Assembly (NCBI GenBank): GCA_964442035.1
Contig: CAYTWZ010000002.1
Span: forward strand, 2,211-31,173
Direction: 5' to 3'
Source: an uncultured Oscillospiraceae bacterium
GTDB taxonomy: Bacteria; Bacillota; Clostridia; UMGS1883
DNA: 28,963 nucleotides
Shown: in pieces, positions 4,578-24,451 of the stretch
How the letters are laid out: every line of letters starts with the position of its first letter
Position numbering within the stretch: the first letter of the stretch is position 1
The notes under the pieces: model-generated
The model's database searches: none
What the model saw: the letters and a program-made list of their open reading frames with translations, nothing else
Told to the model about the DNA's origin: nothing
Translations under genes and position numbers: made by a program

Positions 4578-5339
4578 ATGGGTGACGATTTTACCCTCAG
4601 TGACAAGCAAATTCGTGAAAACCGAAATCGGGAGTACCGCAAAGATCCGCCGGAGCTTATCTTAGTCATAATATGCGTGGCCGCTGTAGTGACGGGTGTG
4701 TTTTTCCCGGGGGAAATGTATGATTCGGTGTTTGGTACCGAGCTTATACTCAGCAATCTCATCCGCGTGTTCTTGGCTGTACTTGGTTTTATATTCGGAG
4801 TGCGAATTATTGTTCCTAACCATAAGATCACTTATATTTTTGGCGGAATAGTGATTCTTGTGTCCGTCATACTGGCCTTTTCTGCTACGCCTGAGGCCAT
4901 GATTGCGTTTGCGATGGGCTTCGCGTCTATGATCGTATCTGCGGCAAGACCGTCGGTGCTTGTAATTACGGCAGCTGCTGTGATACTTGTGGAAATAATA
5001 AAGCGGCTGTATATTATATTCGGCCCCGGACAAAAGGCTTCCCGTGGGGGAAAGGTATTGACCCGTGTATCTGCAATCTTGGGCGGGCTTTCCATATTTA
5101 TTGCGCTGCTGATGCCTATGGTCGATCAGGAGTATCCCGGCATGGCAACGGTCGTGCTTTGGATAGTTGGGCTGATATGCGCCGCCGGCGGGTTTATTAC
5201 AGGAGTTGTTGTAAAGCAGCCGTCATATAATACCGGGGACTGGCTCCGGCTCATAGCTTCAGCGGTGGGTATGGGAATACTGCTTTCCTGTATTACTACA
5301 ATATTCGGCCTCCCCGTGCTCGACTTTATGAGGTGGTAA
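4578..5339 (+). CDS. Polytopic membrane protein of unknown function (about 6 predicted TM helices).
   Basis: An AAAGGAGG RBS lies 8 nt upstream of the ATG. Hydrophobic segments are spread through the ORF and there is no recognisable family motif. It is preceded by leader element copy 1. Confidence 0.6.
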   Translation: MGDDFTLSDKQIRENRNREYRKDPPELILVIICVAAVVTGVFFPGEMYDSVFGTELILSNLIRVFLAVLGFIFGVRIIVPNHKITYIFGGIVILVSVILAFSATPEAMIAFAMGFASMIVSAARPSVLVITAAAVILVEIIKRLYIIFGPGQKASRGGKVLTRVSAILGGLSIFIALLMPMVDQEYPGMATVVLWIVGLICAAGGFITGVVVKQPSYNTGDWLRLIASAVGMGILLSCITTIFGLPVLDFMRW

Positions 5340-5501: not shown

Positions 5502-7034
5502 TTATTTAAAATACGCCAGCGCTGTCTGCATCTGTATGTCAACTACCTTGTTCATATTGTATTCGTAGTCGTTCAGCGCCATGGCTGTGTAGAAATCTAC
5601 CTCACCGGTGATCTCGATTTCGCTGTACCGCTGGAATACCCTTACAGCCGCCTCAGTGCGGCTGTTGTATATTCCGTCCACTTCGCTGTCGGCCAGCAGC
5701 TTGAGGGCGTTAAGCCTTTGCTCCACCCCAAGCCTTGTGCTGTCGGACTCCAGCATGTCTGGGGCAAGTAATATGTCTGCAAAATCCTCCTCATTTACGG
5801 GAGAAACCTCGTTTTCAACCGCGTAATCCGGGGTAAGTCCTGTGCCGTGGATGCGCTGATCGGAGGGGCTGTAATATTCGCCTATCGTGAACTTCAGCCC
5901 GCTGCCTGTGGGGGTATGCATTATTACCTGCATACAGCCCTTGCCAAAGGTTTTGGTTCCCATCAGCTTTGCGGCATTGCGGCTTTGAAGAGCCATTGCC
6001 AGAAATTCGCTGGCGGATGCGGTGTTTTCGTTTACAAGCACCAGCATTTCGTAGCCCGGAGCGTTGTAGTTTTCGGAGTACAGATCCACATTGTTTGCTT
6101 CATCCCGATATTTGAGCTTGCCGATAATTCCGGCTGAGATCAGCTTACGGGCTACCTCAATGGCCGCGTCGATATCTCCGCCTCCGTTGTCCCTCAGATC
6201 GATTATAACATTGTTTATGCCCTGATTTTTGAGCTGGTCAATGTAGCCGTCAAAGTCCTCAGGCAGAGATGCGGTGAAGGAGTCAACATCGATGTAACCG
6301 ATTTTGCGCCCGGCCTCGTTTTCAATGATATCCATGGTGGAATGACTTTCGGTGACCTTTTGGCGTACAGCACGTACATACAAGAGCTCATCGCCGCGAA
6401 CAATGCCTATATCCACAAAGGTGCCTTCCTCGCCAATGATCAGCTCGCGTGTGGCGGCAGGCTCGTAATTGGAGGTGTCAACTCCGTCCACCGATACGAT
6501 CTGATCGCCTACCTGAATGCCGGCCATCTCGGCTGAGCTGCCGGAAAACACATTCTCGATAACTGTGCCGCCCTTTTGTATAGTCATAGTTACACCTATG
6601 CCGTAAAATGAGGCATTGTAGTAATCAAGCTGCTGGGAGTAGAGCTCGGGAGGGTAATACTCCGCATACTCATCCCCAAGGGTCTTTACCATAGTTTCAA
6701 GGGCAAGATCAATGTCAAACCGACCACCGTTGTCAATGGTGGCACAGATCACGTTGTAAAGCAGGTTTTCGTCAGACACTCCGTAATAGTAGTTGTCGGC
6801 CAAAAGGTGGGCGTAATCCCTGATAAGGTTCTTTTGGCGGAATGCGGAAAGGGCATTTTTGAGCTTGGGATTGTCACTCTCTATTTCTGTGCTTTCCGTA
6901 ATTGCTGGAGTATCCGCCTCGGCTTCTTCGGTAGCGGTAGGTGTGTTGACCTCCGTGCTTGCGGGGCTCTCGGCCAAGACAGGGGTAAAAATCAGCGTCA
7001 GCGCCAGCAGCAGTGATAAAAGTTTGTTTTTCAT
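5502..7034 (-). CDS. ctpA: S41-family C-terminal processing peptidase (CtpA/Prc-like). It has a signal peptide, a PDZ domain and a C-terminal peptidoglycan-binding-like domain.
   Basis: MKNKLLSLLLALTLIFTPVLA is a signal peptide. PDZ: GIGVTM...GSSAEMAGIQVGDQIVSVDG. Catalytic region: IIDLRDNGGG...TASASEFLAMAL...TFGKG. The C-terminal ...GVEQRLNALKLLA...AAVRVFQR resembles a PG-binding repeat. Confidence 0.8.
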   Translation of the reverse strand: MKNKLLSLLLALTLIFTPVLAESPASTEVNTPTATEEAEADTPAITESTEIESDNPKLKNALSAFRQKNLIRDYAHLLADNYYYGVSDENLLYNVICATIDNGGRFDIDLALETMVKTLGDEYAEYYPPELYSQQLDYYNASFYGIGVTMTIQKGGTVIENVFSGSSAEMAGIQVGDQIVSVDGVDTSNYEPAATRELIIGEEGTFVDIGIVRGDELLYVRAVRQKVTESHSTMDIIENEAGRKIGYIDVDSFTASLPEDFDGYIDQLKNQGINNVIIDLRDNGGGDIDAAIEVARKLISAGIIGKLKYRDEANNVDLYSENYNAPGYEMLVLVNENTASASEFLAMALQSRNAAKLMGTKTFGKGCMQVIMHTPTGSGLKFTIGEYYSPSDQRIHGTGLTPDYAVENEVSPVNEEDFADILLAPDMLESDSTRLGVEQRLNALKLLADSEVDGIYNSRTEAAVRVFQRYSEIEITGEVDFYTAMALNDYEYNMNKVVDIQMQTALAYFK

Positions 7035-7666
7035 GGCAGTTCCTTTCTGATGTGGCCATATATGGAGGCCAGAGCATTGTTAAGTAAAATATATCGAGCC
7101 ATGGCTAAAGGAGCATATCCGTCTCTTAGCCCTTCCCGGTCATAATATTCCGACGCCGCGGAAATGATTTCCTCCGGTTCATCCCAGCCCAAAGCCCACA
7201 AAAGCCTTTCGGCCTCAGAGGATATAAGCAAATTTGCGTCTTCCCGGCCGTCGGGGGGCGTTCCGTGGAGCTCAAGCATTTTTTTCAGCCTGTTATAAAT
7301 ATATATGTGCCTGAATTTCGGGTCAGACATCTCCGGCATAGGTAGCTCAGGCAGCTCCGCAGCAGGGCTCAGAGCTTCGGACAAAAAGCCCGTATCAGAG
7401 AAAAAGCTTACAAAGCCCTTCCCCGTATTTGCCGGGCGCAGACCCCCACGGGGCTCTATTGCTGTTACAAGATTCGCAGCGATTACCTCCGCACTCACAG
7501 ACAACTCCTTCGCAAGTACAAAGGCCGCCGTGACGGAAAAAGCCCCGTTGCTCCTATCCTTGGGACGTATTACGGAAAATTCGGGACAAAAGCCGTACAG
7601 CCTGAACGCGGCTTCCTCCGTGATGGAGCAGACCAGCCCCTTGCGGTTCTCTAAGGCCGCTTTCAC
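7031..7666 (-). CDS. Arginyl-tRNA-synthetase-derived mini-protein. It has the ArgRS N-terminal (Arg_tRNA_synt_N-like) domain fused directly to a DALR anticodon-binding domain and lacks the catalytic core.
   Basis: PKDRSNGAFSVTAAFVLAKELSVSAEVIAANL and GKGFVSFF parallel the ArgRS N-terminal motifs (P.d..GDy..n.Am.LAK; GPGFINFF). FRHIYIYNRLKKML...ASEYYDREGL...RYILLNNALASIYG parallels the DALR motifs (YmQYAytRvlSvfRK; aYLydLAglF..fY). There is no HIGH or KMSKS. ATGA overlaps on both sides link it to DUF1934 upstream and ctpA downstream. Confidence 0.55.
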   Translation of the reverse strand: MKAALENRKGLVCSITEEAAFRLYGFCPEFSVIRPKDRSNGAFSVTAAFVLAKELSVSAEVIAANLVTAIEPRGGLRPANTGKGFVSFFSDTGFLSEALSPAAELPELPMPEMSDPKFRHIYIYNRLKKMLELHGTPPDGREDANLLISSEAERLLWALGWDEPEEIISAASEYYDREGLRDGYAPLAMARYILLNNALASIYGHIRKELP

Positions 7667-8079
7667 GGGCGCACCTTTACACTCAGCAAATTGTGACTGT
7701 GAGAAATATTGTTGATGGAAAGATTGTAGTCTATATCCAGTTTTCCGCCGTCCTCATCCATGTTTACGGAAACGTCGTTGGCGGTTACGCTTACGGTGAG
7801 GTTGCCGAAAGGTGTTTCGTAGCAGCTTATGTGACACTGTCCCTTTTCAAAAACCATCCTCGTGTTTGCCTCACCGCTGCGGAGCATTGTTATTACTCCG
7901 TCAGGGGAAATCTTGAGGGTGGTGCTGCATTTTTCCCGGCCTATAAGCTCACCCTCAGGATAGTTGATGTAATATTTGCCGGACTTCTTATAAAAGTGTC
8001 CTTCTGTGCAGTAATTCATTTTGTCGGTGTCACCGCCGGCAGTGACATGTCCGTTGATCTCTACATATACCTGTTTCAT
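7663..8079 (-). CDS. DUF1934 (YwiB-like) small beta-barrel protein.
   Basis: MKQVYVEINGHV... is about 139 aa. GAGG RBS (gaggttaaacaaATG). The longer track ORF starting at 8136 would overlap murI. Confidence 0.55.
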   Translation of the reverse strand: MKQVYVEINGHVTAGGDTDKMNYCTEGHFYKKSGKYYINYPEGELIGREKCSTTLKISPDGVITMLRSGEANTRMVFEKGQCHISCYETPFGNLTVSVTANDVSVNMDEDGGKLDIDYNLSINNISHSHNLLSVKVRP

Positions 8080-8104
8080 TTGTTTAACCTCGCAAGTGTA
8101 TCCT

Positions 8105-8902
8105 TTAAAGTACGGTTCTGTGGACGCTGAGCTCAATTTCCCTGCCCAGAAACATCCCTCCCAGCTTTACAAAGCTTTCGGTGCTGTCAGAAACATAGAA
8201 CTCGTAGTGTCCCTTCTTATTTCCTTCGTTGAGCATGTTTTCTTCACTGAGTATCTTTTTGGTGTAGCAGGCTGCTTCACGGCCTGAGGATATGAGCTTT
8301 ACGTCTTCTCCCATTATATCACCGATCACCTTTTCAAGCAAGGGGTAATGTGTACATCCCAAGATAAGCGTATCCACGTTTTCCTTTTTAAGGGGAGTAA
8401 GGTAATCTCTGGCCACTATACGAGCCACCTCACTGTCAGCGTAGCCATTTTCCACAATGGGTACAAACATGGGGCATGCCGCGCTGAACACATGTACATC
8501 CGGCTCAAGCTGGCGGATTATCTGGGCATATTTATCGCTTTGGATAGTACCGGCAGTGCCGATTACACCGATATGGCCGTTTCTTGAACGCTTGATCGCC
8601 GCCCGGCAGGCGGGCTCAAGCACGCCGATGATCCTTACCCCCATGTCTCCAAGGTAGGGGAGGGCAACGCTGCTGGCAGTGCCGCAGGCGGCAAGTATAA
8701 TCTTGATGTTGTATTTAAGCAAAAAATTTACATCGTCCTTTGTGTAGCGTATAAGTGTTTCCCGGCTCCTGTTGCCATAGGGGACACGTCCCGTGTCTCC
8801 GAAGTATATTATATCCTCGCCGGGCAAAACGCTTATTAGCTGCTTGACAGAGGTCAGTCCGCCTAACCCGCTGTCAAAAACCCCGATAGGGCGATTGTCC
8901 AT
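8105..8902 (-). CDS. murI: Glutamate racemase.
   Basis: MDNRPIGVFDSGLGGLTSV..., the GCTHYP motif and ...AACGTAS... are present. A GGAGG RBS (aattatggaggaatttctATG) precedes the ATG at 8902. The track ORF is extended 5' without an RBS. Confidence 0.85.
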   Translation of the reverse strand: MDNRPIGVFDSGLGGLTSVKQLISVLPGEDIIYFGDTGRVPYGNRSRETLIRYTKDDVNFLLKYNIKIILAACGTASSVALPYLGDMGVRIIGVLEPACRAAIKRSRNGHIGVIGTAGTIQSDKYAQIIRQLEPDVHVFSAACPMFVPIVENGYADSEVARIVARDYLTPLKKENVDTLILGCTHYPLLEKVIGDIMGEDVKLISSGREAACYTKKILSEENMLNEGNKKGHYEFYVSDSTESFVKLGGMFLGREIELSVHRTVL

Positions 8903-9051
8903 AGAAATTCCTCCATAATTAATGATAGTGGTATTATTGAATCTCCCGCTGAAATCCTGAGGAGTGAGCGTCCCCTGCGCAGGTTGCAATCGTTCGCAAG
9001 ATCCATTTCAAGCAAGCTTGATGGAGCGTTGTTCCGATTTAAACCGGCAGA

Positions 9052-9930
9052 TCAATTTAAAACCAGCATTTTGTCCCAGTGCCTTTGACTGTGATTGCGA
9101 AAAAACACCGCCATAGCGCCGTTGTCATATATTTCCAAAAAAGCACTGCGTATGGCGTTGCCACGGCCCGTTTCAAGGCTGGAAATATTAATCTGGGTCA
9201 GCATGTGGTTATCTGTGCCGCATATTTGACGACCCCAGTCCTTGCCCGCCCATACACTGTCGCCTATGTGAGCATGACCGTAAAAATGTGCCCTGACGTT
9301 ATTTTGGATAGGCAGGAAGTTGCCCATATACTCTGTGGCCCGATTCCCTCCTGGATAGGAATAATGTCCGGCGGTAATTACATCCGCCATGTTGTCGCGC
9401 TTTGCCGCAATAGCCTGAAAATCTTCATATGTATACGGGTAACCGACACCAAATGCCCTTCCGTGGCAAAAATGCCAGCTTCCGTCCTCCGCCGCACAGT
9501 CCGCCAAAAAAAGAACATCTATGCTGCCGATCTTGTCCCAAAAGTAAAAGTCACTTACACGCTTGGTGGTTTTCCAGCCGTCGGAGACATGCGAGACTAC
9601 CATTTCACGGAATGGGAGCACGGCATCGCCGTGCTCCGATATATAGTCCATGTCGTGATTGCCCGGACAGTAGCATACCGGAACCTTCATTCGGAGAAAT
9701 ACCTCCTCCTGCATCCTTGCCATCTGCCAAAGCTTCCCAAGGTCAGCCCCTTCCACACTGTCACCAAGATACCATGCCTTTTCACAGGTCAGGCCCAGTG
9801 AAGCGATATCCTCCGCCGCAGTGTACATACAGCGGCGGCTCCGGTCAGGGTCATGCTGCTGTAGGTCACTTAAAAGCCATACTCGGTGCAGAACATGTTT
9901 CTTTGATTTTTCAAGAAAATATTCAATCAT
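9052..9930 (-). CDS. Calcineurin-like metallophosphoesterase.
   Basis: Metallophosphatase motifs: D-x-H context (LLSDLQQHD), GDSVEGAD, CPGNHD and GHAH. Confidence 0.6.
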   Translation of the reverse strand: MIEYFLEKSKKHVLHRVWLLSDLQQHDPDRSRRCMYTAAEDIASLGLTCEKAWYLGDSVEGADLGKLWQMARMQEEVFLRMKVPVCYCPGNHDMDYISEHGDAVLPFREMVVSHVSDGWKTTKRVSDFYFWDKIGSIDVLFLADCAAEDGSWHFCHGRAFGVGYPYTYEDFQAIAAKRDNMADVITAGHYSYPGGNRATEYMGNFLPIQNNVRAHFYGHAHIGDSVWAGKDWGRQICGTDNHMLTQINISSLETGRGNAIRSAFLEIYDNGAMAVFFRNHSQRHWDKMLVLN

Positions 9931-13775: not shown

Positions 13776-16700
13776 TTATTTGCTTACTGACGTCAATGCG
13801 CATGAGGATGAGCCTGAGTACGTGCCGCCGGTCACTATTCCGTATGGCTCTTTCCCCGTGAAAGCGCCACCTGTTACGCTCCCTCCGTAATTTAATGTGT
13901 ATGAGCCGCTTTTGATTTCAGGTGTTGATATAAATACCCATGCGTATGCTTTTGACGGTACATATGTCACAATTTCATCCCCGCTTGAATTTGTTAGCTT
14001 GAACGCCTTACCCGCTGATTGTGATGAAAAGCCGCCTGAACCGCCCCACATACCGCTGCCGGAGGAACTTGACGAAGTCACAACGTAATACTGCTTCGCG
14101 CTGTCGGGAGTTATCGCCATATCGGATGAACCTGCGCCAATTACAGTACCTCCTGTAATTGAAAGTGTGTCGCCGTTGTTATCGCCTATGTCAAACACGC
14201 CGTTCCCGCCGCTTGTGGGGCCGTTTACAAGAAGCGTACCGCCCGAAATTAGAGCGCTGCCGTTGCTGTCAAAGCCATCGCCCTCTGCTTCGATATAGAC
14301 CAGTCCGCCGGATATTTCAACATATCCGTATGTCGACGAATCCTCACCGCCCCAGTTGGGACCGCTGTTCCAGCCTTGATTGCCGCCGTTCCAGCCTTGA
14401 TTGCCGCCCGGCCCCGCTAAAAGCTCAACTGACAAAGCGGAAACGGTATCAATGTCATATGCGCTGTCTGTCGGCTTGTCGCCTGCCGCGTTTACACCGT
14501 CGTCAGAGGAAACGATTCTTGTTTCACCGCCTAAAACATATATATTTGCGGCTTCTATGCCTTCATAGCTCTTTGTAATATTTATATCGGCGTTATCGCT
14601 TATATAAAGATAGCTGTCGCCGTGTATCCCATCGTCGCCTGTGGCGGCGGTTATGCTTCCGCCGATTATGCGCACAGTATGGTTTGAATGAACGGCGTCA
14701 TCATAGGTGTTTATATTGAAAGTGCCGCCACTGATATAAACAAGGTTGCCGCCCTTTACGCCCTTACAGCTGCTCGCCGCCTCGGGATTGTTTGCCGAAA
14801 CGGTCTGGGGCGCACCGCCGTATGCGGTCAAATCAAATGTGCCGCCGGAAATATTTGTTATGTTCTCGCTTTGTATACAATCCTGCTGGGAATTTACAGT
14901 GATATTGCCGTCTGTAACAACAACATTTCCGGTCCCGCACTGTATTCCGTCCTCGCTACAGGTTATGTCAAGAGTTCCTCCGTTGATATCAATTTCACCC
15001 TCTACATAGGCGAGAACCGTTGCTCCGTCTGTGTCGTATATTACCTCATTTACTTGAATTCCCTCCAAGGCTTTGGTGATCGTTATATTTGCGCCGCTAC
15101 CTATTGTAATGTTTTTTACCGCTTTGATTCCGTCCTCACCGGCCGACGCGACAATTGTGCCGCCTGTGATCGCCACACAGCCATCGCCCTCGGCAGGCGT
15201 GCCACTTGTTAACGTCGTGTCCTCAAGGTATGCAATGCTCGAAGCATTAGCCTTGATAGCTTCACCCGCGGCGTTGATCGTTATGTCGCCGCCAGTGATC
15301 GTGAGAAGAGTATCAGCTTGTATGCCGTCCCCGTTTGATACAGTGCCGTCCGTGCCTGTTGTTGTTTTTGAGGTTATATTTATTGTGCCGCCGTTTATCG
15401 TAACAGAACCGCCGGAAACGTATTCATTTGTCAGCGCGTCAATTTCAGGATCCTGATCGGACTTGATTCCGTCTCCTCCGGAAACAACCGTTATCGAATT
15501 GTTTTTCTTTGTGATTTTTACGGATTGGTCACCCTTTATGCCGTTGTTTGCGGCAGTAACATTTAAATCGCAGACGCCAATTTCGATGTCGTTCTTACAG
15601 CGTATGCCGTTCCCGTAATCGGATATTGCGTTAAGCGTTCCCTCACCCTTTATTGTAAGGTCATTCTTGCTGTAAATTGCTGTTGTATCCCCGTCCGATG
15701 AAGCTGATCTGAATGTGCTTTCGTTTTCTGTGGGAACAAGTGTTACCGTTCCCTTTAAACCGTCAAACGCGTTCCCCGTTGTGCTTGTTACGCTTACACC
15801 GTCAAGATTGACGGTGATTAAATCTGTCTTTTCGGAGGAATTAACTATTATCTGTCCATCGTTTAATGTGCCCTCAACGGTATATTCTCCCGCCGCCGTA
15901 ATTGTAACGGCAGTTCCAGATACGGTTACATTTTCAATGCCATCGGCATTCACGCTGTCACCCATAAGATGTATTATTCCGTCACCCGCGGAAATTACGG
16001 GATCCTGTGGAGATTCCTCCTCAGTCGCTTTGGTGGTGACGGTAACAGTGATATCGCCTGTTATCTTGGTTATTCTGTATGTATTTTCCCCAAGCTCGGA
16101 GGGCAGCTTTAGATTTTTGTAATTTGTTGACGGGGTCACTTCAACAGATTCGATCTCGTAGCCCTCATCCGCGGTAATCTTAAAATTCACCTGTCCGTTG
16201 CCGGAGGTATCGATTTCGCCGGTGTCGCCGCTTCGCGCGTATGCCTCTGTAACAAACTGCTCATCGCCTGTAAACACCTGCGTGTCAGACACGGCTATTG
16301 ATGCGTGGGAATCGGTCTCAAATGTCGCTTTAAAGCCCTCCGCTGTCGTTGCCTTGGTGGTGACGGTAACAGTGATATCGCCTGTTATCTTGGTTATTCT
16401 GTATGTATTTTCCCCAAGCTCGGAGGGCAGCTTTAGATTTTTGTAATTTGTTGACGGGGTCACTTCAACAGATTCGATCTCGTAGCCCTCATCCGCGGTA
16501 ATCTTAAAATTCACCTGTCCGTTGCCGGAGGTATCGATTTCGCCGGTGTCGCCGCTTCGCGCGTATGCCTCTGTAACAAACTGCTCATCGCCTGTAAACA
16601 CCTGCGTGTCAGACACGGCTATTGATGCGTGGGAATCGGTTTCAAATGTTGCTTTAAAGCCCTCCACAGGAACAAACACATCACTTAGCGGCTCAAGGGT

Positions 16701-17033
16701 CAGTACGCCGTTTTCTGTTTTCCAGAAAAAAGCTTTTAAAACATCGCCGTCATCTTTTAATGTGCTGTTAAAGACAAGCGACTTGTTGCCGGTTCCGTTT
16801 GTTTCTTCGGATACCACAATGCCCTTGAGCTGCCCTAAAGAGTCATATACCGCAACAATTCCTTTCCCGCTTTCGTCTGAGCCTTTGCTTACGACCATTG
16901 ATATATTTCCGTTCTCGTCAATATCCAATGAGGTAATTGAGCAGGCAAGCTCTGCCGCCTCCGCGGCAATTGAAAAAACCATCAGCGATAAAACGATGAT
17001 AAAACATAGAACCTTTGTGGAAATGGATCTCAC
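13776..17033 (-). CDS. Large secreted right-handed parallel beta-helix (pectate-lyase-fold, possibly Cthe_2159-like carbohydrate-binding) surface protein with two tandem Ig-like domains.
   Basis: MRSISTKVLCFIIVLSLMVFSIAAEA is a signal peptide. There are two identical 108-aa repeats (EGFKATFETDSHASIAVSD...ITVTVTTKAT). Many beta-helix rungs follow (GGTINITS, DGIKA, GDGIQA, DDGIHG, DDGVNA). The C-terminus is Gly/Asn/Ser-rich (GGNQGWNGGNQGWN, SSSSSSGSGMWGGSGG). Confidence 0.6.
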   Translation of the reverse strand: MRSISTKVLCFIIVLSLMVFSIAAEAAELACSITSLDIDENGNISMVVSKGSDESGKGIVAVYDSLGQLKGIVVSEETNGTGNKSLVFNSTLKDDGDVLKAFFWKTENGVLTLEPLSDVFVPVEGFKATFETDSHASIAVSDTQVFTGDEQFVTEAYARSGDTGEIDTSGNGQVNFKITADEGYEIESVEVTPSTNYKNLKLPSELGENTYRITKITGDITVTVTTKATTAEGFKATFETDSHASIAVSDTQVFTGDEQFVTEAYARSGDTGEIDTSGNGQVNFKITADEGYEIESVEVTPSTNYKNLKLPSELGENTYRITKITGDITVTVTTKATEEESPQDPVISAGDGIIHLMGDSVNADGIENVTVSGTAVTITAAGEYTVEGTLNDGQIIVNSSEKTDLITVNLDGVSVTSTTGNAFDGLKGTVTLVPTENESTFRSASSDGDTTAIYSKNDLTIKGEGTLNAISDYGNGIRCKNDIEIGVCDLNVTAANNGIKGDQSVKITKKNNSITVVSGGDGIKSDQDPEIDALTNEYVSGGSVTINGGTINITSKTTTGTDGTVSNGDGIQADTLLTITGGDITINAAGEAIKANASSIAYLEDTTLTSGTPAEGDGCVAITGGTIVASAGEDGIKAVKNITIGSGANITITKALEGIQVNEVIYDTDGATVLAYVEGEIDINGGTLDITCSEDGIQCGTGNVVVTDGNITVNSQQDCIQSENITNISGGTFDLTAYGGAPQTVSANNPEAASSCKGVKGGNLVYISGGTFNINTYDDAVHSNHTVRIIGGSITAATGDDGIHGDSYLYISDNADINITKSYEGIEAANIYVLGGETRIVSSDDGVNAAGDKPTDSAYDIDTVSALSVELLAGPGGNQGWNGGNQGWNSGPNWGGEDSSTYGYVEISGGLVYIEAEGDGFDSNGSALISGGTLLVNGPTSGGNGVFDIGDNNGDTLSITGGTVIGAGSSDMAITPDSAKQYYVVTSSSSSGSGMWGGSGGFSSQSAGKAFKLTNSSGDEIVTYVPSKAYAWVFISTPEIKSGSYTLNYGGSVTGGAFTGKEPYGIVTGGTYSGSSSCALTSVSK
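16028..16676. repeat. Perfect or near-perfect 2 x 324-bp tandem direct repeat inside the surface-protein gene.
   Basis: The unit beginning TTGGTGGTGACGGTAACAGTGATATCGCC...GCTTTAAAGCCCTCC occurs at about 16030-16353 and again at 16354-16677, with about 2 mismatches. Plus-strand ORFs 16198-16446 and 16522-17145 mirror it. Confidence 0.85.
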
Positions 17034-22054: not shown

Positions 22055-24451
22055 TCAATCCTCCAATATCTCGTCCACACACATATCCGCCAGCTCACGG
22101 GCGTATTCTTCACAGTACCCTTGGCTGGTTATATTTATGGAAGAGAAACCCTCCGATGGAGTCAGCAGTACCCAGCCCTTGTCAAAGCTCAGTTTTATAC
22201 CGTCGGTCAGATCCATAGGCTGGCTTTGATGACGGCTGTATATTTTGTTCATAGCTTGGGAGGTTTCGGCGCAGTCTACACCGGTGTGTATCATGTGGGT
22301 CTCGGGCAGACGGGCAAGAAGCTCGGACAATGAAGCGTTTTCGCTTTTCATAAAGTCAATCAGCTTGATCAGCGCGCCCACCGCATCAAAGGCGTAGATA
22401 AACTGGTCATACAGCATGGGGTCATCGGATTTGGTCAGCTCGCGCATAAGCTCCGGCGGAGAATTACGGGTGCGTACCACTACAGCACCGTATTTTTCAG
22501 CCAAAAGCTCAACTCCCGAAGGCGCTGATATCGGAACGTAGATTTTGGCGCCCCTGTGGGTATGCATTACAATCATAGCGGACAGAAGAGTGTATATATC
22601 ACGGCTGATTATTCTCCCGCTAATATCGATGAGGGTCAGTTCCTGACAGGACGGGTCGATAACAGCTCCCAGATCCGCGCCTTCTTCCTTTACGGCCTGG
22701 GCGATCTCATGAGGGCCTTTGTCAGAGGTCTCCACATGGCAGTTGAGATCATTGCCGGCGCTTTTCAGCAGACGCTTTGCCCAGTCGGAGCTGCCTCCTA
22801 CCAGCAACTTGTAGCCGAGGCTTTGCTTTTTAGTGGAGTTGATAAGGTTTTTGAGATAAAACAGCTTGTATTCAAAAAGGTACTCCGCATCCTTAATGTT
22901 TTCGCTGCTCCCCCGGGAAAAGTCCTCCAGTCGAAAGCTGCTTTTAAGCCTGTTCATCAGCTCGGACTGCGGGTCTGCACCGTTGGGACCTATGAGCTTG
23001 ATTTCTCCGTAGTCAGCTCCTCCCCGGGTATATACGTTTACCGCCGCACCGCCCCACAGCCGATGAAAGCGGACTCCGCTTCGGCTTACTGGAAGAGGCT
23101 GTTCCCCAAAGTCAAAGATTTTTGCTCCTGTGGAGAGCACTCCGCCGATGAAGGCGGATTTCAGCATTGCCGCCGCCGGTGAGCCGCTGTCGGATACGCC
23201 TACGCCGCAGCCATCCGCTGCTGTGCCAAAGGCTGCACCAAGGAGGGTCATTGTTTCGGGAGTTATTTCGCTGCCAAGCTCTCCCTGTACTCCGGCAGAG
23301 CTCCATATCCGTCCTCCCCCTACGCTACCCCATATAAGGTTGGAATGCTGCACGGTATCCGGAGGAAGCTCCTTATGTGGCCATATACGGACACCGGGCT
23401 TTACGGCACAGTTTTCACCTACCACGCTGCCGCTGCCTATCACTGCCTGCTCGTATACGGCGCTCCCGCGTTTAAGGACAGCTTCGCGGTCTATTACCGC
23501 ACCTCTAAGCTGAGCGTTTTCCTCCAGTCTGCATCCGTCAAGGGCAATGCCCCGCTTGATGCCGGATCCGGCACAGAGAGTGACCCCGCGGCCTATTACG
23601 CTGTAGGGCTCTACTCTGGAACCACGTAGGATACGGCTGCGCCCTCCGATAAATGCCGGCGGGCGCAGTACGGCTCCCTGCTGTATTTCGGCCCCGCTTT
23701 CAACCCAGATGCCCTCACTGTATTCCTCCGGCATGTTCAGCGCGGTTTTCCGATCAAGTATATCCCCGTGACAGCGGCGGTAGTCCCCAAGGCTCCCGAT
23801 GTTGCACCAGTATCCGCCGTGGGGCATACCGTATATACCGCGTTTGTCATTAAGCAAAACCGGAAATATGTCTCGTATCAGGTCAGTAAAAATTCCCTCG
23901 GGTATCAGTGTCAGCAGCTTAGGCGAGAGCACTCCCACTCCGCAGCTTATATATGAGGATGCAACAAGCCCCCAGTCCGTACTTTCGAACAGCCTGTTTA
24001 TCCGTCCTCCTTCTCCGATGGTCATTGTCGCCCGGTGAGGATATGGGGAGGCGGGTGCCAGCGCAATGGAGGCCAATGCTTTGCGGCTTTTGTGGAAACG
24101 AATAAGAGACGTAATGTCCATGTCCGTTATCACCGAGCCGCTCATTGCAACAAAGTCCCCATCTACAAAGTCCCAGGCGTTTTTTAACGCTCCGGCAGTA
24201 CCCAAGGGTGTATCTTCATTAAAATACGTCAGTCTAACTCCTAAGGCCGTACCGTCACCGAAAAATTCGCGTATTTTGCCTGCCATGTACCCTTCTGTTA
24301 CGGCAATTTCAGTTATGGCGTGCTTCTTCAGTAGCTTTATACAGTGCTCCATTATGGGCGCACCCATAATATTGAGCATAGGCTTTGGCCTGTCACAGGT
24401 GAGCGGCCTAAGCCGCGTGCCCTCGCCGCCGGCCAGAATTATAGCTTTCAC
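22055..24451 (-). CDS. Bifunctional sugar-1-phosphate nucleotidyltransferase (mannose-1-P guanylyltransferase-like N-terminus plus left-handed beta-helix) fused to a phosphohexomutase (phosphomannomutase/phosphoglucomutase) domain.
   Basis: N-terminal MKAIILAGGEGTRLRPLT...PLGTAGAL is the NTP-transferase signature. The middle region has hexapeptide-repeat-like segments. The C-terminal 350 aa have a PGM/PMM-like architecture. GTG start with an AAGGGGG RBS. Confidence 0.65.
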   Translation of the reverse strand: MKAIILAGGEGTRLRPLTCDRPKPMLNIMGAPIMEHCIKLLKKHAITEIAVTEGYMAGKIREFFGDGTALGVRLTYFNEDTPLGTAGALKNAWDFVDGDFVAMSGSVITDMDITSLIRFHKSRKALASIALAPASPYPHRATMTIGEGGRINRLFESTDWGLVASSYISCGVGVLSPKLLTLIPEGIFTDLIRDIFPVLLNDKRGIYGMPHGGYWCNIGSLGDYRRCHGDILDRKTALNMPEEYSEGIWVESGAEIQQGAVLRPPAFIGGRSRILRGSRVEPYSVIGRGVTLCAGSGIKRGIALDGCRLEENAQLRGAVIDREAVLKRGSAVYEQAVIGSGSVVGENCAVKPGVRIWPHKELPPDTVQHSNLIWGSVGGGRIWSSAGVQGELGSEITPETMTLLGAAFGTAADGCGVGVSDSGSPAAAMLKSAFIGGVLSTGAKIFDFGEQPLPVSRSGVRFHRLWGGAAVNVYTRGGADYGEIKLIGPNGADPQSELMNRLKSSFRLEDFSRGSSENIKDAEYLFEYKLFYLKNLINSTKKQSLGYKLLVGGSSDWAKRLLKSAGNDLNCHVETSDKGPHEIAQAVKEEGADLGAVIDPSCQELTLIDISGRIISRDIYTLLSAMIVMHTHRGAKIYVPISAPSGVELLAEKYGAVVVRTRNSPPELMRELTKSDDPMLYDQFIYAFDAVGALIKLIDFMKSENASLSELLARLPETHMIHTGVDCAETSQAMNKIYSRHQSQPMDLTDGIKLSFDKGWVLLTPSEGFSSINITSQGYCEEYARELADMCVDEILED

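Follow-up and report, generated by a model that had tools for sequence, protein, structure and literature searches.

A core-less arginyl-tRNA synthetase derivative in the argS position beside DUF1934 in uncultured Oscillospiraceae

Arginyl-tRNA synthetase (ArgRS) is a class Ia enzyme comprising an N-terminal domain (PF03485), a catalytic domain (PF00750) and a DALR anticodon-binding domain (PF05746). Several free-standing proteins are homologous to individual parts of aminoacyl-tRNA synthetases, among them the Trbp111/CsaA/Arc1p-type tRNA-binding domain, AlaX, YbaK/ProX, HisZ and YadB/Glu-Q-RS, which have tRNA-related or regulatory roles. To our knowledge, none of the Trbp111, AlaX, YbaK, HisZ and YadB types is derived from ArgRS and none joins the N-terminal D-loop-binding domain directly to the anticodon-binding domain. 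Human synthetases reportedly give rise to "catalytic nulls", said to have been described by Lo et al. in Science in 2014, which are splice variants that lack the catalytic domain and keep the non-catalytic domains. The subject of this analysis is a protein of 211 amino acids (aa), referred to here as mini-ArgRS, that is encoded on the minus strand of a 28,963-nucleotide stretch of DNA (the window) from an uncultured Oscillospiraceae bacterium (contig CAYTWZ010000002.1, assembly GCA_964442035.1), between a gene of the DUF1934/YwiB family upstream and a gene for an S41 family peptidase downstream. Mini-ArgRS is almost certainly a catalytically null descendant of the native ArgRS gene, argS, and the best explanation overall is that it is probably kept as a non-catalytic binding module.

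Mini-ArgRS is directly descended from ArgRS and shares with it the N-terminal (Add1) domain, including in most members the Phe-x-Asn motif for nucleotide A20, as well as the way in which the two domains are predicted to sit relative to each other and the chromosomal slot after DUF1934. It differs from ArgRS in having no catalytic domain, a shortened DALR domain and a rate of evolution that is several times higher. The nearest concept is that of the human catalytic nulls, which follow the same principle, as the catalytic domain is precisely removed and the appended domains are retained as a stable protein with a non-translational role. However, the human forms arise by alternative splicing of a functional eukaryotic gene, whereas mini-ArgRS stems from a deletion that is fixed in a bacterial genome and is the sole copy at its locus. 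Trbp111, AlaX, HisZ and similar proteins are likewise stand-alone homologs of synthetase parts, but mostly belong to ancient paralog families, whereas mini-ArgRS is a recent in-place conversion of a native synthetase gene. With its homology to non-catalytic synthetase domains, its absent core and its apparent maintenance as an independent gene, mini-ArgRS would take its place among the synthetase-derived non-catalytic proteins. The nearest sequences are RefSeq "DALR anticodon-binding domain-containing proteins". Literature searches retrieved no ArgRS-derived catalysis-free protein, no core-less bacterial ArgRS and no bacterial case of a native synthetase gene converted in place. The gene and its parts are as follows.

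7031..7666, minus strand: mini-ArgRS, core-less ArgRS derivative, 211 aa, GTG start (open reading frame list; PF03485 above cutoff; 18 intact homologs)
7352..7666, minus strand: Add1 domain of mini-ArgRS (ArgRS N-terminal, tRNA D-loop-binding), aa 1-105
7325..7366, minus strand: Pro-rich linker of mini-ArgRS, aa ~101-114, PAAELPELPMPEMS, in place of the ~325-residue catalytic core
7052..7324, minus strand: shortened DALR-type anticodon-binding domain of mini-ArgRS, aa 115-205, four helices
7663..7666, minus strand: GTGA overlap of the mini-ArgRS start codon with the DUF1934 stop codon (translational coupling; read from the sequence)
7672..7678, minus strand: Shine-Dalgarno-like AAAGGTG, 5 nt upstream of the mini-ArgRS GTG and within the 3' end of DUF1934
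7031..7034, minus strand: ATGA overlap of the S41 peptidase start codon with the mini-ArgRS stop codon (read from the sequence)

Domain identity and the missing catalytic core

The N-terminal half of mini-ArgRS is recognised by PF03485 at aa 29-89 with 27.6 bits against a Pfam cutoff of 21.5, and this domain is matched in all eight family members tested (best E 1.5e-14). With a profile of the family, ten PDB chains of ArgRS are matched in their N-domains with E-values between 2.8e-8 and 3.3e-5, and in PDB sequence searches, by single sequence as well as by profile, the N-domain is the only part of mini-ArgRS that was matched. Foldseek comparison of the mini-ArgRS model with the PDB places ArgRS in all top matches, with a root-mean-square deviation of 22-24 Å and a template modelling score of about 0.4, which supports the N-domain only because the sequential alignment of Foldseek cannot jump the missing core. 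Judged from its sequence, the N-terminal half is the ArgRS Add1 domain.

The C-terminal half appears to be a diverged DALR anticodon-binding domain by three independent tests. When 32 full-length ArgRS were searched with a profile of this half, 26 were matched at E<0.1, 11 of them at E<1e-3, and for 25 of the 26 ArgRS matched the best hit falls in the last 150 residues, while the controls yielded one match among 32 reversed sequences and none among 160 shuffled ones. Hhalign against 31 full-length ArgRS aligns aa 111-205 co-linearly with columns 421-542 of 554 (probability 88.9%, E 2.4e-6; reversed-alignment control 0.3%), with two deletions of 18 and 7 columns. The AlphaFold2 model, for which two of five models are confident (the other three score 71, 52 and 45) and the alignment holds 8 sequences, reaches a mean predicted local distance difference test score (pLDDT) of 92.9 and a predicted template modelling score (pTM) of 0.86, and shows an alpha/beta N-domain and four C-terminal helices, with the two domains predicted to pack together as they do in ArgRS. 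The helices carry the (N/D)P-F-Y-R, LL-PEE-LL, FY and AR-L motifs. The core motifs of the DALR domain are thus kept, but about one helix and the C-terminal tail are gone.

Nothing of the class I Rossmann-fold catalytic domain is recognisable, as PF00750 finds no match in mini-ArgRS even at E<=10, and the protein contains neither an H-x-G-H/N string of the HIGH type nor a K/M-M/F-S-K/T string of the KMSK type. The argS equivalog models TIGR00456 and NF002447 score 13.5 bits (cutoff 261.65) and 21.2 bits (cutoff 460), and the NCBIfam argS models align to aa 32-102 only. The motif positions were mapped against P0183, the syntenic ArgRS of a sister lineage:

GHGDY at P0183 residue 41 corresponds to SNGAF at mini-ArgRS residue 39
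AGPGFINF at P0183 residue 85 corresponds to TGKGFVSF at mini-ArgRS residue 81
NPVFYVQYAHARI (DALR start) at P0183 residue 434 corresponds to DPKFRHIYIYNRL at mini-ArgRS residue 115
LLSTPEE at P0183 residue 470 corresponds to LLISSEAE at mini-ArgRS residue 146
FHSFYN at P0183 residue 513 corresponds to ASEYYD at mini-ArgRS residue 171
SKARLKL at P0183 residue 530 corresponds to AMARYIL at mini-ArgRS residue 188

Neither HMGN (~138), the HIGH-type motif of P0183, nor MSKRTG (385), its KMSK-type motif, has a counterpart in mini-ArgRS, from which P0183 residues ~105-430 are missing. By this mapping the Pro-rich linker stands in place of the entire catalytic core of ~325 residues. Mini-ArgRS cannot be an aminoacyl-tRNA ligase because the entire catalytic domain and both signature motifs are absent, and the annotation "arginine--tRNA ligase" must not be given to the predicted protein, which fails the defining tests of an ArgRS. 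The similarity of mini-ArgRS to ArgRS was also considered as a product of chance, and this was rejected.

An initial annotation of this DNA had read the 211-aa open reading frame at 7031-7666 as the two terminal tRNA-binding domains of ArgRS without the catalytic core. The frame is present on the minus strand together with all the motifs that were quoted in its support (PKDRSNGAFSVTAAFVLAKEL, GKGFVSFF, FRHIYIYNRLKKML, ASEYYDREGL and RYILLNNALAS). The N-terminal assignment agrees with PF03485 and the PDB matches, the DALR origin of the C-terminal half with the profile, hhalign and the AlphaFold2 model, and the loss of the core, HIGH and KMSKS with the failure of PF00750 and of the string searches.

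Descent from argS and selection on the gene

A search of 1.84 billion cluster representatives recovered five mini-ArgRS members at E<1e-30, all of 206-212 aa. Ordinary ArgRS N-domains begin below them, after a drop in score from 132 bits to 69. The family is distributed over six GTDB species, all of them metagenome-assembled genomes of uncultured Clostridia or Oscillospiraceae. Besides the assembly of the window, its carriers are GCA_947589005.1, GCA_051888075.1 and the genomes with the contigs CANQRB010000001.1, CANRCD010000002.1, CANRJP010000013.1, JAFLUQ010000015.1 and CAZICW010000036.1. The block pgk-tpiA-gpmI-(metallophosphoesterase)-murI-DUF1934-mini-S41 is common to all mini loci, and a gene of 199-214 aa occupies the argS slot in the window and in the loci L001, L002, L004-L009 and L013-L015. 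The sister lineages L010/L019, L016/L017 and L018 have the order murI-DUF1934-argS-S41, with an argS of 558-559 aa whose products carry PF03485, PF00750 and PF05746, and in L016 and L017 pgk-tpiA-gpmI is also found upstream of this group. The DUF1934 proteins of the sister lineages are the most distant homologs found (43-57% identical to that of the window); the homolog search with DUF1934 extended only to 57% identity, which sufficed to reach the outgroup. The syntenic ArgRS gives the top whole-profile score, 72.5 bits, among the full-length ArgRS tested. Because two successively more distant outgroups carry the full-length gene, the 211-aa gene is the derived state, an ortholog of argS by position that has lost an internal segment in frame. 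Four full-length ArgRS used as tblastn queries against the window and L001-L009 matched only the N-domain of the mini gene, and no full-length argS figures in the gene tables of L013-L015.

The open reading frame is intact at all 11 mini loci (204-214 aa), and the 18 distinct mini-ArgRS protein sequences (199-214 aa) are free of frameshifts and stop codons although they share only 38-82% identity and synonymous change is saturated or nearly so. Among these 18 sequences 21 positions are invariant and are spread across both halves. The ratio of nonsynonymous to synonymous substitution rates (dN/dS) could be read from only two pairs with unsaturated synonymous sites, and for the whole gene amounts to 0.19 in one (95% bootstrap interval 0.12-0.29; synonymous rate, dS, 0.67) and 0.165 in the other (0.11-0.25; dS 0.79). 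In the same pairs the N-terminal half gives 0.16 and the C-terminal half 0.17-0.22. The values for the neighbours are similar, with 0.10-0.14 for the S41 gene and 0.14 for murI, and DUF1934 shows 0.02-0.03 in the one pair that was measurable and 0.05 in the more diverged pair L004-L005. One database sequence, P0004 (199 aa), equals the L004 protein (L004 10001-10633) minus an in-frame stretch of 11 residues in the C-terminal half, ASAAMEFYDRV, a gap that reflects either natural indel variation or a difference in assembly.

The start of the mini gene overlaps the DUF1934 stop codon by 4 nt in 11 of 11 mini loci, whereas in the sister lineages a spacer of 18-59 nt separates DUF1934 and argS. In the window the GTG start lies at 7666-7664 and the TGA of DUF1934 at 7665-7663, and the homologous loci also have a purine-rich AGGT-type (or GTG) stretch at the place of the Shine-Dalgarno-like site. 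At the other end, where the TGA of mini-ArgRS (7033-7031) overlaps the ATG of the S41 gene (7034-7032), the mini-gene stop and the S41 start overlap in 7 of 11 loci and are a few nt apart in the other 4. Taken together, mini-ArgRS is very probably a maintained, functional protein.

The initial annotation had assumed that the gene stands in the slot taken by argS after DUF1934 and that it is maintained rather than decaying at random, and both statements agree with the sister lineages, with the conservation of the truncated gene in relatives and with the dN/dS against orthologs that it had proposed to obtain. It had given the overlap with both neighbours as ATGA, which is correct downstream, but the upstream overlap reads GTGA in the window and ATGA in the other loci. 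It had left the choice between a deletion relic and a free-standing paralog, and both descriptions hold, since native argS underwent an in-frame deletion and was then kept as a free-standing gene. Simple decay had been tied to a full-length argS at this locus in relatives together with frameshifts or stops in the short copy. Relatives do carry the full-length gene there, but with no such lesion in any of the 18 distinct sequences simple decay is excluded.

Putative role and rival explanations

In ArgRS the Add1 domain reads the D-loop identity nucleotide A20 via a Phe/Tyr...Asn/Gln motif and neighbouring residues, the pocket being formed in E. coli by F36, Q40, A78, F82 and N84, with a Pro in addition in T. 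thermophilus (PMC3956977, PMC8975779). Of the A20 motif, all 18 mini-ArgRS sequences retain the stacking Phe/Tyr and 17 of them the Asn. Two further residues do not vary within the family, the Gly of GDY and the Pro upstream of it, and the equivalent of Pro80 is an almost invariant Lys.

It is proposed that an in-frame deletion took ~325 residues from argS, namely the stem-contact region and the whole Rossmann-fold core, in which the HIGH-type and the KMSK-type motif lie, and that a Pro-rich linker of ~14 residues took the place of the core and joined Add1 to the shortened DALR domain. The product would be able neither to activate arginine nor to charge tRNA. It would be translated in coupling with DUF1934 upstream and the S41 gene downstream and kept by purifying selection, in at least a dozen species-level lineages of uncultured Oscillospiraceae-like Clostridia of the gut, as a non-enzymatic binding module that could hold tRNA(Arg) via the D-loop pocket and the anticodon-domain remnant. 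It could also, or instead, offer a partner surface to the DUF1934 protein, to which ArgRS genes stay linked, while arginylation would be carried out by another argS elsewhere in the genome. Binding of tRNA(Arg), mainly via the D-loop, may be retained, at somewhat below an even chance, and mini-ArgRS may also work with DUF1934 as its docking partner, a tentative suggestion that is compatible with tRNA binding.

Core-less proteins have arisen more than once. The representative search also recovered P0034 (251 aa), P0117 (279 aa), P0107 (339 aa), P0020 (366 aa) and P0150 (369 aa), which contain Add1 and DALR_1 at Pfam significance and no catalytic domain. Two of them share with mini-ArgRS the place directly after murI-DUF1934:

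L020 6001-6840 and L021 1802-2641: P0117, 279 aa
L023 3633-4652 and L024 463-1482: P0107, 339 aa

The P0107 cluster includes WP_429083860.1, a RefSeq "DALR anticodon-binding domain-containing protein" of 339 aa from the cultured Brassicibacter mesophilus (Tissierellales), and DUF1934 does not adjoin P0034 (L022). WP_429083860.1, P0117, P0020, P0150 and P0034 resemble mini-ArgRS in having Add1 and DALR with no recognisable catalytic domain but, unlike it, exceed the Pfam DALR_1 cutoff and have lengths and boundaries of their own. The deletions have different boundaries, and every one of these proteins resembles full-length ArgRS more than it does the mini-ArgRS family, which marks them as independent events. 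This repeated loss of the core beside DUF1934, with Add1 and DALR kept, is the strongest hint that the Add1/DALR pair has a selectable role. In L023, two tandem c-di-GMP-I-type riboswitch aptamers (L023 1194-1382; RF03167 63 bits, RF01051 62.7 bits) precede a transglutaminase-core gene at a distance of a few kb from the core-less gene.

Four other explanations have to be weighed against a retained binding module. The gene could be a decaying pseudogene, that is the functionless remnant of a recent in-frame argS deletion that is still free of disabling mutations. Its position in a slot where relatives have full-length argS, its rate of change, the highest in the block, and the 11 residues absent from P0004 would fit such a remnant. 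A neutral remnant could not, however, have stayed open and this constrained across such divergence, in which all 18 sequences are intact over near-saturated synonymous sites, the upper limits of dN/dS are at most 0.29 with both halves alike, 21 residues are invariant, and the start-codon overlap and the Shine-Dalgarno-like site are conserved. The pseudogene reading is therefore rejected, its probability being close to nil. The same argument rejects the notion that the frame is kept solely to deliver ribosomes to the S41 gene, with selection acting on translation and not on the protein. This would account for the 4-nt overlaps with both neighbours, but selection for read-through would not keep amino-acid change at about one sixth of the synonymous level or maintain 21 invariant residues and a two-domain fold that is modelled with confidence, and in 4 of 11 loci the S41 gene starts without overlapping the mini stop codon, all of which makes it scarcely credible.

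Mini-ArgRS could alternatively be one part of a split ArgRS, providing D-loop and anticodon recognition in trans to a catalytic core encoded by a separate gene elsewhere. Such a division of labour is in keeping with the retention of both tRNA-recognition domains in an ArgRS-like predicted arrangement, with the preservation of most A20-pocket residues and with the fact that full-length argS is not seen in any fetched sequence. Nevertheless an identity of 38-47% is not expected of an essential translation component, the DALR domain is shortened and acidified, and no gene for a core-only ArgRS was observed in the ±10 kb inspected around each locus. The rate of change and the erosion of DALR make this role very unlikely. 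The fourth possibility is a protein-protein adaptor that has left tRNA altogether, its domains serving as a scaffold for DUF1934, the S41 protease or some other partner that it perhaps regulates. This is suggested by the conserved DUF1934-argS linkage in the sister lineages, the very strong constraint on DUF1934 after loss of the core (dN/dS 0.02-0.05), the tight 4-nt coupling to DUF1934, which is derived in the mini lineage, the independent core-less ArgRS derivatives that again adjoin DUF1934, and the acidic C-terminal half. On the other hand, an interaction between DUF1934 and ArgRS is shown nowhere, with the literature yielding only a speculative annotation of YwiB (PMC3814617). The gene neighbourhood was inherited from argS and is thus weak evidence for a new function, and the A20-pocket residues are more conserved than a pure scaffold would need. 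An adaptor independent of tRNA is considered unlikely.

A number of observations also weigh against the preferred reading of mini-ArgRS as a tRNA-binding relic of argS under selection. The protein is 38-47% identical to that of the window in genomes where Pgk is 89-92% identical, and 559-aa ArgRS homologues are ~80% identical to the sister-lineage enzyme, so that mini-ArgRS diverges much faster than the synthetase and is the fastest-evolving gene of the block, ahead of its neighbours and of ArgRS; by these comparisons the constraint on it appears much weaker than that on a working synthetase. Of the two Pfam domains expected by the initial annotation, Arg_tRNA_synt_N (PF03485) was matched, but DALR_1 (PF05746) was not, in mini-ArgRS and 7 homologs, even at E<=10, and NCBIfam gives no match to the DALR region of mini-ArgRS either. 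That domain has lost ~18 internal residues as well as a few close to either end, the terminal Met among them, and the AlphaFold2 models described above are of uneven confidence. The net charge of the C-terminal half is -6 to -11 in most members compared with -1 to -4 in the same region of sister ArgRS, which argues against strong anticodon-loop binding. In the pocket, the equivalent of Ala78 (E. coli numbering) is replaced by Met in most members, also by Thr, and in the window copy the Asp at aa 42 has become Ala and the Asn at aa 87 Ser. The window copy is thereby an outlier of its family, with GA for the consensus GD and GKGFVSF for GKGF-I/L-N-F, and may have drifted further from recognition of the tRNA D-loop than its relatives. 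Neither a full-length argS nor an ArgRS core is found in the 29-kb window or within ±10 kb of the loci; this absence says little because only ±10 kb around each locus was inspected, and since argS is essential, a working copy must presumably lie elsewhere in the genome. Lastly, the function of mini-ArgRS is one that we infer from ancestry alone.

A bolder proposal, which is at present improbable, is that of a module specific for tRNA(Arg) and independent of aminoacylation, made up of DUF1934 together with the two domains by which ArgRS binds tRNA. Such a module might serve as a sensor, might chaperone or sequester the tRNA, or might hand off Arg-tRNA(Arg). YwiB has been annotated speculatively as an RNA-binding or editing factor (PMC3814617), and literature searches on the function of DUF1934 returned nothing beyond this. 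If the proposal were true, the module would be what selection keeps when a DUF1934-linked argS turns redundant, it would explain why at least three Bacillota lineages excised the core independently, each with its own boundaries, yet kept Add1, DALR and the linkage to DUF1934, and it would provide the first functional handle on the widespread, uncharacterised DUF1934/YwiB family. The locus amounts to a natural experiment, in which sister lineages with the full-length enzyme in the same slot can be set against a core-less form under purifying selection in a dozen or more species, and the independent parallels with other boundaries include one in the culturable Brassicibacter mesophilus. The implication is that the pair of Add1 and anticodon domain has a selectable role besides charging tRNA, and that this role is tied to DUF1934/YwiB, a common Bacillota protein adjoining argS.

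Neighbouring genes and further observations

Three neighbours of mini-ArgRS in the conserved block are the following.

7663..8079, minus strand: DUF1934/YwiB-like gene, 138 aa, ATG at 8079 (PF09148, E 1e-34)
5502..7034, minus strand: S41 C-terminal processing peptidase (PDZ + Peptidase_S41 + PG_binding_1), 510 aa (Pfam; TIGR00225)
8105..8902, minus strand: murI (glutamate racemase), upstream member of the conserved block (Pfam PF01177; syntenic in all loci)

The identities given to the two flanking genes by the initial annotation, DUF1934/YwiB-like upstream and C-terminal processing peptidase downstream, are sound, as the DUF1934 protein also matches PDB 1R0U (protein ywiB) with E 8e-13 and the peptidase scores 229.6 bits on TIGR00225 (cutoff 218.6). 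The S41 gene is syntenic in mini-gene and full-length-argS lineages alike. Two starts in the open reading frame list are too far upstream. DUF1934 is listed with 157 aa from a TTG at 8136 (7663-8136) and is assigned to the ATG at 8079 because all homologs have 138-139 aa, and murI is listed with 294 aa from a TTG at 8989 (8105-8989) and is assigned to the ATG at 8902 because its homologs have 265-268 aa. Between gpmI and murI most mini-bearing genomes have a gene for a calcineurin-like metallophosphoesterase (292 aa, 9052-9930 in the window), which is missing there from L007 and from the sister lineage L016/L017.

Searches for RNA elements found no T-box or other Rfam family at the window locus, the sister loci or the parallel loci adjoining core-less genes, and tRNA genes are absent from the window and from 9 loci; promoter and terminator scans gave nothing exceeding the shuffled background. 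Convergent to the S41 gene, at 4578-5339 on the plus strand, lies a gene for a 253-aa, apparently multi-pass membrane protein with no Pfam match, which adjoins a capsule/chain-length cluster (Wzz/tyrosine-kinase-like, CpsB). Further along the window, the minus strand encodes a 1085-aa protein with three Cthe_2159 carbohydrate-binding stretches (13776-17033) and a 798-aa protein in which a nucleotidyl transferase is fused to hexapeptide repeats and phosphoglucomutase/phosphomannomutase domain I (22055-24451).

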